Source of the DNA: Candidatus Aenigmatarchaeota archaeon
GTDB taxonomy: Archaea > Aenigmatarchaeota > Aenigmatarchaeia > CG10238-14 > SCSR01
NCBI GenBank assembly: GCA_038998625.1
Contig: JAWADS010000018.1
Coordinates: forward strand, 1-6,461
DNA length: 6,461 nucleotides
Reading direction: 5' to 3'
In this document: positions 3,001-6,000 of the stretch, one piece after another
Layout of the letters: each line of letters begins with the position of its first letter
How positions within the stretch are numbered: the first letter of the stretch is position 1
Made by a program: the position numbers

Positions 3001-6000
3001 TTTTAGAGAGCTAAAGTTAGATGAAATAATCGCTATAAATACACAAGGGAGACTCACAGAAGTTGCAGGAAAATATGCTGGATTAAAAGTTGAGGATGCT
3101 AGAAAAGCAATAATTGAAGATTTAGAAAAAGAGAAGTTAGTTGTAAAAAAAGAAAATATAGTGCATCACACCCCAGTTTGCGAAAGGAGTAATGTGCCTA
3201 TAGAAATTATTCCAATGAAAGAATTTTATCTGGACCAACTTAACTTCATACCAATTTTAAAAAAGATTCAAAAAAAAATAAAATTCCATCCAGAGAAGCA
3301 TAGGCAAAGGTTAATAGATTGGATGAATTCTTTAACCATAGATTGGCCTATCTCAAGAAGAAGATATTATGGCACTGAAATTCCCATATGGTATTGTGAA
3401 AATTGTAATGAGCCGCATTTACCAAAATCAGGAAGATATTATCAGCCTTGGAGGCAAAAGGCTCCATTTAAAAAATGCAAAAAATGTGGGAACAAAACTT
3501 TTATTGGTGAAACTCGAACTTTTGATACATGGTTCGATTCAAGCATTTCCCCCCTTTTTATTTCAAAATTTATGAAAGATAAAAGATTTTTCACAAAATT
3601 CTTTCCAACTTCTTTAAGACCACAGGGAAAAGACATAGTTAGAACTTGGCTTTATTACACATTACTAAGATGCTATCAGTTAACCAAAAAAATTCCTTGG
3701 GAACATGCTTGGATAATGGGTTATGGTGTGGATGAAAAAGGAGAAAAGATGAGCAAGAGCAAAGGAAATGTAATAGATCCTTTTCCGATTATAGAAAAAT
3801 ATGGCGCCGATGCCTTTAGATTTTGGTCTGCCCAAGAAGCAAGTTTAGGAGAAGATTTTCGATGCTCCGAGGAAAGAATAAAAAATTCAGGAAAATTTTT
3901 AACTAAATTATGGAACTTGGCAAGATTTATTTCTATGTTTCCTCAACCAAAAAAAGCAAAATTATTACCTAGCGACAAATGGATTTTAGCTGAATTAAAT
4001 AAAACTATAGCAGAAGCTCTGAAAGGATATGAAAATTTTAATTTTTTCATTCCTGCCACTAAAATGAGAGAATTCACGTGGAATGTTTTCGCAGATCATT
4101 ATATCGAGATGATTAAACCAAGAGCCTATGGTGATAGATTTAATAAAGCTGAACAACAAGCTGCATGGTTTACTCTACATACTTGTTTAAAAAATATTTT
4201 GGTTATATTGGCACCGATAATTCCTTTTATAACAGAATATATATGGCAAGCTCTTTACAGCAAAAAAAGCCTTCATTTGCAAAAGTTTCCAACAAAAATA
4301 AAAAGATCCAAAAATTTTGAAAGGCTAACCCCAAAAATTATTGAATTTAATTCAAAAGTTTGGAGCTTAAAGAAAAAAATGAGATTAACATTGAAAGATT
4401 CTATAGAAGCAAAAATACCTAAAGAATTAAAAATATTTGAAAAGGATTTGAGGGCTATGCATAACATTAAGCCTTAATCGGAAAATTTATTAAGGTTTTA
4501 TTAACTAAAATATAATCTCAATGCGCAAAGATGAGAAGGATGTTGAATGTAGAGCAACTAAAAAGGAAAAAATTTTGATTTTTAGCTAGGGGGATCTATA
4601 TTTAGCGAAAAGGAACTTCTACAATTAAGAAAATTGTTGAAAGAATTGGAAAAAATTAAAGGTAGGCACACAGAGCTAGTCTCTGTTTACATCCCTAGCG
4701 GAGCAAATTTAATTGATGTAATAAATCAACTTCAAGAAGAGAAGGGCACTGCTAGCAATATTAAATCTAAAAACACTAGAAAAAATGTTCTCTCTGCTTT
4801 GGAAAAAATAATTCAGCATTTAAAAACCTTTAGACAAACTCCCCCTAATGGTTTGGTTGTTTTTTGCGGAAATGTTTCACCAGTAGAAGGAAAAGAAGAT
4901 ATAAAACTTTGGAGCATAGAACCTCCGGAAAGAATGAATGTAAAAATTTATTGGTGCGACCAAGTGTTTGTTCTCGAGCCTTTGCGAGATTTATTTAGAG
5001 AAAGGGATGTGTATGGTTTGGTGGTATTAGATGCTAGGGAAGCTAACATAGGTTTATTGAAAGGTAAAAGAATTATTTCGCTTAAACACTTGGAATCGAC
5101 TGTTCCTTCAAAAAGCGTGAAGGGTGGTATGTCACAAATGAGGTTTGATAGGTTAAGAGATGATGCAATAAATGAATTTTTAACTAAGGTTGGCGAGGTA
5201 TCTAATCAAAACTTTCTCAATCAGAGAGATCTGAAAGGTATATTAGTAGGCGGCCCAGGTCCAATTAAGGATCGTTTTGCTAAAGAAGATTACTTAAATT
5301 ATCAGCTTAAGAAAAAAATTTTGGCAGTTAAAGATACTGGCTACACAGGAGAAGCAGGTTTGGAAGAATTGGTAAAAAGGAGTGAAGACATAATAAAAGA
5401 AACTGCTCTAGCTAAAGAAAGGGAATTACTTTCTAAATTTTTCAAAGAAATAAAAGAAGAGGGAAATGTTGTTTATGGTAAAGAAAAGGTTATGCAAGTG
5501 TTAGAAACTGGTGTGGCTGAAATATTGCTAATATCAGAAGAATTTGAAGGGGATTTGGAAGAAATCATAACTAAAGCCGAAAATTATGGAGCAAGAACTG
5601 AAATTATTTCTACAGATACTCAAGAGGGGAGACAGTTTTTGAAACTAGGGGGAATAGCAGCTTTTCTAAGACACAAATTAAGTTAAATAAATTATTCTTT
5701 TTGTTTTTCACTAATTAAAATTGCATTGACAACTCCATCTTGCCCTGGCCGAGAGGTAACCTTTGCATTTCCTAATTCTGTTTTAATAATCGCGCCTCTA
5801 GTAATAATTTTTCTTCTCACAAAATGTGGATTAGCTGGATTTTCTATTACATCTAGAATTTTTACTTTCTTCACAACTTTATTGGCAGTATCAATAACAT
5901 TAGCATATTCACAAGCATAAGCTTTTAATTTTTTTCCTCCACCCTTCGTTCTTTTTAAAACTTTTTTATCTTTTCCAAGTTTTGTATATATAGGTAAACT

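Follow-up and report, generated by a model that had tools for sequence, protein, structure and literature searches.

Evidence for repeated loss of the ribosome recycling ATPase ABCE1 in a family of Aenigmatarchaeota, with a GGM-type aRF1 as the only eRF1-family gene found in one of its genomes

The window, the whole stretch of 6,461 nucleotides that was analysed, is the entire contig C18 of a Candidatus Aenigmatarchaeota genome (G000; 469,094 b in 19 contigs, 91.8% completeness) and carries an aRF1 gene (Table 1). The Pfam domains eRF1_1, eRF1_2 and eRF1_3 are all present in its product, giving the three-domain architecture, and the NCBIfam equivalog model TIGR03676, with a cut-off of 234.7 bits, scores it at 431.5. 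The NIKS motif of domain 1 lies within TASNIKSKNTRKN (residues 39-51). In domain 2 of the window aRF1 the place of the catalytic GGQ is taken by GGM, with Met166 aligning on the Gln of GGQ in the HMMER alignments to the best solved relatives, 4af1_A and 3agk_A. Judged from its sequence, the gene is an aRF1 orthologue. No other member of the eRF1 family was found in this small DPANN genome, in which a PF03464 search gave a single match. Because of the GGM, we name it an aRF1 orthologue with a non-canonical loop and not a textbook member of the family.

Table 1. Features of the aRF1 gene in the window (forward-strand positions).
Feature	Position	Strand	Remarks
aRF1 gene	4634..5686	+	350 aa from TTG at 4634; alternative TTG start at 4637; both codons read
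NIKS stop-codon-recognition motif	4757..4768	+	aRF1 residues 42-45; read in translation
Gly-Gly-Met (GGT GGT ATG) in place of catalytic GGQ	5123..5131	+	aRF1 residues 164-166; DNA read directly

In canonical recycling, aRF1/eRF1 or Pelota/Dom34 is paired with ABCE1/Rli1. According to three papers, every archaeal and eukaryotic genome encodes this protein, and it is essential in each organism in which this has been tested (PMC5711452, PMC6124641, PMC3828320). The three-domain aRF1 with NIKS is retained here. Six-frame searches of G000 with PF00005 (ABC_tran) gave nothing over the cut-off (best E 0.00108, 18 candidates scored, 14 of 14 controls positive), and PF04068 (Fer4_RLI) had no match, with 4 of 4 archaeal controls over the cut-off. 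Eight weak PF00005 matches were considered as a divergent ABCE1 and rejected on account of the proteins in which they sit: a PIN/PilT/KH ATPase, two pilus ATPases, CDC48 with an intein, Rad50, aIF2-gamma and RFC. The full-length ABCE1 search of the genome yielded no candidate and no twin-cassette soluble protein of about 590-600 aa. Run with hmmsearch --max against 6089 frames (all stop-to-stop frames of at least 30 aa), a profile built from 12 ABCE1s of the family gave an SMC-like 840-aa frame as its best match (E 0.004) and no ABCE1 fragment at the contig edges. For Pelota/Dom34 the sole TIGR00111 match in G000 was aRF1 itself, over model positions 138-351, the Pelota-type N domain (1-130) remaining unmatched. 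An earlier note on this DNA had reported neither an ABC_tran nor a Fer4_RLI domain in any of the six frames and no Pelota; the PF00005, PF04068 and family-profile searches bear out the former, and TIGR00111 and PF03464, both matching aRF1 only, the latter. Its caveat that the bin lacks some essential genes also holds, for neither aEF1A nor aIF6 turned up in the assembly, so that the gene list of G000 has gaps.

Our comparison covered metagenome bins of 56-96% completeness, none of them stated to be closed, and its whole-genome searches score only the candidates of a loose first look, so that proteins without detectable similarity to ABCE1 would escape. The own family (coded f1) consists of G000 and 69 relatives in 27 genera. 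With the full-length profile, ABCE1 was detected in 21 of the 69 relatives, all within 12 genera, and it was absent from 49 of the 70 genomes, including 47/47 genomes of 15 genera. PF04068 alone found Fer4_RLI in 18/69 relatives, with genera that were wholly negative (g16 0/11, g24 0/9, g2 0/6, g12 0/4, g17 0/4, g15 0/3, g1 0/1) and others that were largely or wholly positive (g3 3/3, g23 3/3, g25 5/6). These figures are identical to the genus pattern of the earlier note, the total of which, 18/69, is superseded by 21/69, as the full-length profile adds G042 and G043, both of g18, and, in G047 of g21, a piece at a contig edge. The retained ABCE1 proteins share 62-98% identity among 12 genomes, and their eight FeS cysteines are all invariant, a conservation that argues against general dispensability of ABCE1 in the family.

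Incompleteness of the bins could mimic such a distribution if ABCE1 existed in these organisms and had merely remained unassembled or unbinned. The incomplete G000 assembly, without aEF1A and aIF6, gives some ground for this reading, as do G044 (77% complete) and G064 (69%), which lie in ABCE1-bearing genera and in which the missing ABCE1 is probably a gap of assembly or binning. As an account of the pattern as a whole it is nevertheless hardly credible, since the gene is absent throughout the 15 genera while the same 70 genomes yielded an eRF1-family match in 65 cases and a YchF-related GTPase in 63, and since ABCE1 was found in 112/126 genomes of ten other families of the phylum, those not itemised in our tally. 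ABCE1 is also missing from 16 of the 20 family genomes of at least 90% completeness, and several ABCE1-less assemblies consist of few contigs (G029 3, G028 5, G025 7, G033 7, G032 8, G054 9, G031 10, G053 10); among the ABCE1-free genera, g16 and g24 come closest to closed genomes, with 3-10 contigs.

The locus from which the gene has gone speaks to the same point. ABCE1 adjoins the YchF-related GTPase gene in 18 of the 21 ABCE1-bearing family genomes, starting no more than 1.5 kb from that gene's 5' side in divergent orientation. The GTPase was detected in 43 of the ABCE1-less genomes; in 39 of them, G000 included, its locus runs unbroken for 2-8.6 kb with no ABCE1, and the far-side genes are those of the ABCE1-bearing loci in 36 of these 39. 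On contig C3 of G000 the order is GTPase, c14, c17 (polyprenyl synthetase), c9, c6, c7, c3, c0, c0, c2; in the ABCE1-bearing relative G014 it is GTPase, c14, ABCE1, c17, c9, c6, c3, c0, c0, c2. The G000 locus is thus the G014 locus minus ABCE1. No ABCE1 relics were detected by tblastn with 13 family ABCE1s in 343 kb of these loci, where the only matches were to an ordinary ABC-2 transporter ATPase in four genomes. This 255-aa ABC protein (G029, G032, G035, G037) was rejected as a relic of the first ABCE1 cassette (NBD1): it carries ABC_tran beside an ABC2_membrane permease and has 28-35% identity to ABCE1. This ABC-2 exporter pair, in those four genomes, is the only set of incoming genes at the vacated locus.

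An unbroken ancestral locus without ABCE1 indicates loss and not an assembly gap. A four-gene tree of the family, made by a fast LG+G4 search from a concatenated alignment with many gaps, leaves out 12 of the 70 genomes and has unresolved basal branches. It requires four changes of ABCE1 state, at least three of them forced by branches with SH-aLRT of at least 95; other families of the phylum are likewise patchy for ABCE1, with further loss contrasts in f3, f6, f8, f21, f22 and f27. We therefore regard it as almost certain that ABCE1 was truly lost from G000, as from every one of the 47 genomes that make up 15 of the family's 27 genera, by clean removal about four times within the family and also elsewhere in the phylum. 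The earlier note had read the absence as a true, clade-wide loss and not an artefact. The loss stands on the unbroken loci of the 39 genomes, whereas the tree and the patchiness of other families speak against a single event.

Pelota followed a course of its own. No Pelota N domain was found in 47/47 genomes of the 15 ABCE1-free genera, which are unlike canonical systems in having neither ABCE1 nor Pelota, and a two-domain mini-Pelota is present in 12 family genomes, all of ABCE1-bearing genera. The proposed loss of Pelota in the family thus applies to the ABCE1-free genera and not to the 12 genomes with a mini-Pelota. Outside the family, full-length Pelota occurs without ABCE1 in 21 genomes, of families f3 (8) and f8 (13), so the rule that Pelota is never found without ABCE1, which is true inside f1 and f21, was rejected. 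Pelota and ABCE1 were lost independently and not as a unit, contrary to the suggestion that one joint system had disappeared. Shoemaker, Eyler and Green reportedly observed in 2010 that in yeast extracts Dom34:Hbs1 can drive the subunits apart when Rli1 is lacking. This is an earlier case of an eRF1-family factor and its GTPase splitting ribosomes slowly by themselves and is paralleled by the 21 f3 and f8 genomes; it is unlike the own family, whose ABCE1-free genera are without Pelota as well.

Bacterial RRF/EF-G, HflX and ArfB-type RF-1-domain hydrolases perform the same task on post-termination and stalled ribosomes, and none of them was found in the family genomes searched. Neither RRF (PF01765) nor the RF-1 domain (PF00472) exceeded its Pfam cut-off in any of the 70 genomes, and HflX (TIGR03156) stayed below the equivalog cut-off in five of five (G000, G029, G054, G062, G012), with 14/14 controls positive; replacement by an acquired bacterial RRF, release factor or HflX was rejected on these counts. 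Components shared with canonical recycling persist, as aIF1 was found in 5/5, aIF6 in 4/5 and aEF1A in 4/5 of the genomes sampled, and 21 family genomes have ABCE1 with intact FeS cysteines. The idea that ABCE1 went since Fe-S cluster assembly went was rejected on the distribution of SufBD, which most ABCE1-less genera possess (g16 11/11, g17 4/4) and which is absent from 22/23 genomes of ABCE1-bearing genera, with only three to four independent contrasts for any link between ABCE1 and SufBD. The absence of SufBD from ABCE1-bearing genera makes an outside supply of cofactor or protein conceivable, and the cells, which are probably episymbiotic, might by extension obtain ABCE1 or the whole recycling activity from a host. 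Their very small genomes (0.4-1.2 Mb for most) and the symbiotic lifestyle argued for this phylum in PMC8407114 are compatible with such a supply. It is nonetheless very unlikely, because ABCE1, working in stoichiometric cycles on the ribosomes of the cell itself, would have to be imported continuously, and because sister genera of similar genome size retain their own ABCE1.

With neither ABCE1, Pelota, RRF, a bacterial-type release factor nor HflX, these cells terminate with aRF1, brought in by aEF1A wherever the assembly includes its gene, and their subunits must separate without the twin ATPase. Loss of ABCE1 together with splitting that does without this ATPase is, on balance, probably the best explanation of our data as a whole. 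How the splitting proceeds is a separate matter, and a passive process in the ABCE1-less cells is a real possibility, if one that falls somewhat short of probable. The post-termination 70S ribosome would dissociate slowly, aided by aRF1/aEF1A, and binding of aIF1, aIF1A and aIF6 to the free subunits would make the dissociation irreversible; the aIF1, aIF6 and aEF1A found in the sampled genomes are components of this proposed route. Slow growth and probable host dependence could make slow splitting tolerable. In Archaea such a route would correspond to the recycling without energy input that eIF3, eIF1 and eIF1A bring about at low Mg2+ (Pisarev et al. 2007, as described in PMC5711452, which also gives its enhancement by eIF6). 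The proposed likeness lies in ATPase-free separation with initiation factors holding the subunits apart. To our knowledge there is no eIF3 in Archaea, and we know of energy-free eIF3/eIF1/eIF1A recycling only in vitro and in eukaryotes.

Passive splitting competes with a non-orthologous replacement, in which a dedicated factor unlike ABCE1, RRF or HflX, arisen in or before the ancestor, made ABCE1 dispensable. That the gene went several times independently in a single phylum suggests that these lineages had a predisposing condition in common, and candidates for the factor are an unknown protein or one of two GTPases. In f1, and at two of three f3 loci read, ABCE1 has the YchF-related GTPase as its conserved neighbour in divergent orientation, and this GTPase is retained in 43/47 genomes of the ABCE1-free genera; an EF1A/SelB-like GTPase of 523 aa, which scores under every family cut-off, occurs in G000, G029 and G062. 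Both occur in ABCE1-bearing and ABCE1-less genomes alike, however, and neither is singled out. Among the searched factors and loci no gene family was found to arrive where ABCE1 disappears, the exporter pair being the sole newcomer at the vacated locus, and we consider a replacement of this kind unlikely. A wider formulation, which we advance only tentatively, is that unrecognised splitting, by a dedicated factor or a self-dissociating ribosome, may have made ABCE1 repeatedly expendable, and that peptide release in this order is catalysed by an aRF1 in which the 'invariant' methylated Gln changed to Met, Trp, Tyr or Phe after or with loss of Mtq2. Little splitting might be needed at all if the 70S ribosome mostly stayed on compact polycistronic mRNAs and re-initiated, leaving a recycling ATPase dispensable. 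Genes are indeed tightly packed (the c17 and c14 ORFs of G000 overlap by 20 nt, and the genes of the ABCE1 locus lie few bases apart), but operon ends and stalled ribosomes would still require splitting and the packing is the same in ABCE1-bearing sister genera; we hold this reading to be very unlikely.

Our literature searches returned no report of ABCE1 or Pelota loss, or of GGQ variants, in DPANN. The Aenigmarchaeota genomics paper PMC8407114 says nothing of release factors or ABCE1, and the text supplements of PMC8407392 and PMC7414124 make no mention of them, although their large tables may list the gene. The natural and repeated deletion of ABCE1 shows that the twin ATPase is no absolute requirement of the archaeal-eukaryotic ribosome cycle. 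It makes testable what minimal machinery suffices for subunit splitting and the rescue of stalled ribosomes, with ABCE1-bearing and ABCE1-less sister genera side by side as built-in controls.

The C domain of aRF1 is the domain that binds ABCE1, and it is bound by aEF1A too. For eRF1/aPelota, binding of ABCE1 by the C domain is stated in PMC5711452. The ratio of mean pairwise distances in the C and N domains of aRF1 (C/N) was 1.52 in ABCE1-less against 1.14 in ABCE1-bearing genomes. Within clades it was 2.88, 1.87, 1.64 and 1.21 (ABCE1-less) against 1.05, 1.32 and 1.34 (ABCE1-bearing), few independent clades being compared and the ABCE1-less g16, with 1.21, being without the faster divergence of the C domain. 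The ABCE1-binding C domain thus appears, from these sequence distances, to have been relaxed after the loss of ABCE1.

Across the order, GGQ has given way in aRF1 to GGM, GGW or GGY, and Mtq2, the methyltransferase of the Gln, is absent. An aRF1 with GGM or GGW and without Mtq2 constitutes a second natural experiment, one that bears on what the 'universal' methyl-glutamine does in peptide release. A tie between the GGQ-to-GGM change and the loss of ABCE1 was rejected by family f21, in which all 30 aRF1s read, from 13 ABCE1-bearing and 17 ABCE1-less genomes, have GGQ.

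Our comparative analysis confirmed the observation of the earlier note that ABCE1 is missing from this archaeon (genome G000; 469,094 b in 19 contigs, completeness 91.8%, contamination 0.28%; placed in Aenigmatarchaeota by the NCBI names on the closest homologues), and supported and strengthened its reading as a true loss, with corrections concerning the count, the number of losses and Pelota. The window, which makes up all of contig C18 of G000, encodes aRF1 (NCBIfam aRF-1 equivalog: 431.5 bits, cut-off 234.7), whose closest solved structures are the archaeal aRF1s 4af1_A and 3agk_A and for which TTG codons at both 4634 and 4637 offer two possible starts, together with a ThyX-like ORF, a metallophosphoesterase, a class-I tRNA synthetase, S8e and an LSm protein. 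No match over the cut-off was obtained in G000 with PF00005 (best E 0.00108, 18 candidates; 14 of 14 controls detected) and none at all with PF04068, while a profile of 12 family ABCE1s, run with all HMMER filters off on 6089 stop-to-stop frames, reached at best E 0.004 in an SMC-like frame, and aRF1 was the sole match to PF03464. Eight weak PF00005 matches were rejected as a PIN/PilT/KH ATPase, two pilus ATPases, CDC48 with an intein, Rad50, aIF2-gamma and RFC. No ABC ATPase domain was found in G000, yet its sister genome G067 has SufBD; aEF1A and aIF6 were likewise not found in the bin and were found in four relatives. Some of these absences are probably assembly gaps and, as the earlier note had cautioned, G000 alone proves little about ABCE1 loss.

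The evidence therefore comes from the family (70 genomes, 27 genera). The count of 18 of 69 relatives with PF04068 was reproduced together with every genus figure; as a total for ABCE1 it rises to 21 of 69 with a full-length profile, which adds G042 and G043 (genus g18) as well as a fragment at a contig edge in G047 (g21). ABCE1 is confined to 12 genera and was found in none of the 47 genomes of 15 other genera, G000 among them; two further genomes without it, G044 (77% complete) and G064 (69%), sit in ABCE1-bearing genera. Every other family match to the profile is a single ABC cassette with E no better than 2.6e-23, and most of them fall in frames of 226-344 aa. An eRF1-family match in 65/70 genomes and a YchF-related GTPase in 63/70 served as detection controls. 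Where retained, ABCE1 is 62-98% identical among 12 aligned genomes with all eight FeS cysteines invariant, and because it is so conserved, a diverged copy in sister genera is unlikely.

An assembly gap was excluded by the locus itself. In 18 of the 21 ABCE1-bearing genomes, ABCE1 starts divergently no more than 1.5 kb from the 5' side of the YchF-related GTPase gene (538 bits against NF007171), the exceptions being G061 (GTPase not found) and G047 and G050 (genes at contig ends). Between ABCE1 and the GTPase there is often a gene for a membrane protein, and a conserved block of gene families, c3, c0, c0, c2, c4, follows on the far side of ABCE1. The equivalent side of the GTPase gene was fetched from every ABCE1-less genome with an identified GTPase (43 in total): 39 loci consist of 2-8.6 kb of unbroken sequence without ABCE1, 36 of them sharing gene families with ABCE1-bearing loci, and four (G046, G069, G017, G022) run into a contig end. 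The GTPase is followed by c3-c0-c0-c2-c4 in 11 of 11 g16 genomes and in seven g24 genomes, which is the order of ABCE1-bearing G042 minus the membrane gene and ABCE1; in the five g2 genomes the membrane gene remains, as does the gene that follows ABCE1 elsewhere, with ABCE1 itself gone. Contig C3 of G000 reads GTPase, c14, c17 (polyprenyl synthetase), c9, c6, c7, c3, c0, c0, c2, with a 20-nt overlap of the c17 and c14 ORFs, and ABCE1-bearing G014 reads GTPase, c14, ABCE1, c17, c9, c6, c3, c0, c0, c2. No relic was detected when 13 family ABCE1s were searched by tblastn against 343 kb of ABCE1-less loci; the sole match, in four g16 genomes, was ruled out as an ABC-2 exporter ATPase. An ancestral locus that is contiguous without ABCE1 or relic in 39/43 ABCE1-less genomes marks a true loss and not an artefact. 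The divergent GTPase-ABCE1 pair is conserved in the family and in two of three loci examined in the neighbouring family f3, and the GTPase stays put after ABCE1 loss.

Features and loci of the analysis (C, contigs of G000; L, fetched loci)
Feature	Source	Coordinates	Strand	Details
aRF1 ORF	window	4634-5686	+	three eRF1 domains
aRF1 catalytic loop	window	5123-5131	+	GGM, not GGQ; residues 164-166
YchF-related GTPase gene (NF007171)	C3	13315-14466		matching loci L081-L129, L131, L134
EF1A/SelB-like GTPase	C14	11-1642	+	523 aa; ~110-aa N-terminal extension; under every NCBIfam cut-off
CDC48/VCP-type twin AAA ATPase	C1	84533-88159	-	1209-aa frame; putative intein-like insert inside first AAA domain, as seen in the translation
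Mini-Pelota	L168	371-1027
Mini-Pelota	L169	383-1051
Mini-Pelota	L170-L175
aRF1 inteins	L066-L078 (e.g. G059, G040, G001, G007, G014)			~147 aa in g12, ~320-570 aa elsewhere
NVKD aRF1s	L046, L058, L062, L063, L064, L067, L068, L069

The single clade-wide loss that had been proposed was not borne out. On a tree of 58 family genomes and one outgroup (twelve family genomes left out), built from four proteins (GTPase, c2, c4 and intein-free aRF1; 1949 columns, IQ-TREE quick search, LG+G4), four changes of ABCE1 state are needed, and at least three of them are forced by branches with SH-aLRT of at least 95. Genomes without ABCE1 fall into a clade of 26, nested among lineages that bear ABCE1; g5 with g24; g2, the sister of ABCE1-bearing g18; and g1 (G000) and g4/g20, close to the unresolved base of the tree. 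Because every ABCE1-bearing lineage has the gene at one shared locus, as do two of the three f3 loci, the changes are losses, several of them within the family.

The pattern extends beyond the family. ABCE1 was found in 42/118 genomes of the order (13/23 in f3, 7/19 in f6, 0/3 in f4) and in 213/371 of the phylum, where families f8 (7/21), f21 (13/44), f22 (2/6) and f27 (0/8) are poor in it and ten further families have it in 112/126 genomes, which is the expectation for an always-present gene at this bin quality. The ABCE1-less f21 genomes include assemblies of 2, 3, 5, 8, 9 and 10 contigs. That a gene so strongly conserved where kept was lost time and again within one phylum suggests that the ancestor had some predisposing trait. 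Loss of Fe-S assembly was rejected as the driver: SufBD (PF01458) is present in most ABCE1-less genera (for example in G029 and G038) and missing from 22/23 genomes of ABCE1-bearing genera (for example G062, G012 and G049, with G042 the exception), contrasts too few for statistics, and the ABCE1 of SufBD-less genera nonetheless keeps all eight FeS cysteines. ABCE1 is reported to be essential in Haloferax volcanii, according to an unpublished result cited in PMC3828320. The full texts and supplements covered report neither ABCE1 or Pelota loss nor GGQ variants in DPANN, and ABCE1 absence may sit unremarked in one of the large presence/absence tables that accompany comparative studies of DPANN.

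The claim that Pelota was lost jointly with ABCE1 holds in so far as no genome of the ABCE1-free genera has a Pelota N-domain match; the two losses are otherwise decoupled. The TIGR00111 cut-off is reached by no family genome, and no full-length match occurs at E of 1e-35 or better, but in 12 genomes of the family, every one from an ABCE1-bearing genus, there is a mini-Pelota of 219-245 aa in which the eRF1_1 (Pelota N) domain is fused directly to eRF1_3 and the central domain is missing. Five ABCE1-bearing genera (g3, g6, g19, g23, g26) also lack any N-domain match. Conversely, full-length Pelota occurs without ABCE1 in eight f3 genomes (G072, G082-G086, G088, G089) and 13 f8 genomes (G118, G119, G121-G125, G128-G131, G135, G137). 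Found apart in both directions, the two genes are lost independently of each other, and ABCE1 is apparently not required for Pelota to persist and work.

In the ABCE1-free genera ABCE1 and Pelota are gone, aRF1 is kept and the known alternative splitters are absent: bacterial RRF over the cut-off was found in 0/70 family genomes and HflX in 0/5 genomes. In a sample of three ABCE1-less and two ABCE1-bearing genomes, aIF1 was found in 5/5 and aIF6 and aEF1A in 4/5 each, G000 being the one without both. ABCE1-bearing and ABCE1-less genomes alike have an EF1A/SelB-like GTPase that falls short of every family cut-off, and the 523-aa type of G000 recurs in G029 and G062. The work might fall to a dedicated splitting factor of unrecognised kind, which we consider unlikely, or be supplied by the host, which seems less probable still; that re-initiation replaces splitting altogether is very improbable. 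We tentatively favour a passive route, possible though short of probable, in which aRF1 with aEF1A would release the product, the 70S ribosome would then separate without an ATPase, and aIF1, aIF1A and aIF6 would hold the separated subunits apart. Dom34:Hbs1 alone is reported to dissociate yeast ribosomes slowly, which would fit such a route. It would also mirror the energy-free eIF3/eIF1/eIF1A route with enhancement by eIF6, described for eukaryotes in PMC5711452.

The retained aRF1 may bear traces of the loss in its C domain, the part held by the FeS domain of ABCE1 (PMC5711452). The C/N-domain ratio of mean pairwise distance is 1.52 in 27 ABCE1-less genomes versus 1.14 in 14 ABCE1-bearing ones, C-domain divergence at matched N-domain distance is 0.461 versus 0.348 and 0.471 versus 0.396, and within-clade ratios are 2.88, 1.87, 1.64 and 1.21 versus 1.05, 1.32 and 1.34. 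The faster divergence fits relaxed constraint after ABCE1 loss, with few clades, non-independent pairs and no effect in g16.

The catalytic loop departs from GGQ irrespective of ABCE1 presence. Of the 64 relatives that have an eRF1-family match, 40 were sampled for aRF1 (loci L039-L078), and all 41 family aRF1s read, including that of G000 are non-GGQ (GGM 37, GGW 2, GGY 2). The closest 120 public homologues comprise 118 GGM, two GGF and no GGQ, and 150 representatives (50% clustering) include 117 GGQ, 13 GGW, eight GGM and three GGF. In other families of the order (L176-L180), two f3 and two f6 genomes have GGW, and f5 has GGM; outside the order, 30/30 f21 aRF1s have GGQ. The archaeal GGQ glutamine methyltransferase Mtq2 (TIGR00537) exceeded its cut-off in five of five f21 GGQ genomes (G197, G190, G172, G187, G206), in none of five GGM genomes of the family (G000, G029, G054, G062, G012) and in 1/118 genomes of the order, marginally (87.5 bits, cut-off 87). 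One idea is that Met or Trp might stand in for N5-methyl-Gln after methylase loss. Since no other release factor was found, the bacterial RF-1 domain being over the cut-off in 0/70 family genomes, the GGM, GGW and GGY proteins must be the working release factors. The NIKS motif is replaced by NVKD (LAQNVKDKTVRKN) in aRF1 of ABCE1-bearing g8, g9, g21, g22, g25 and g26, and literal NIKS is also missing from both f3 aRF1s read. An intein interrupts 13 of the 41 family aRF1 genes precisely at KGGM/C...HN/SQ (slashes mark the borders; the GGM/S site), and one lies at GGQ/C in 38 of the 150 representatives.
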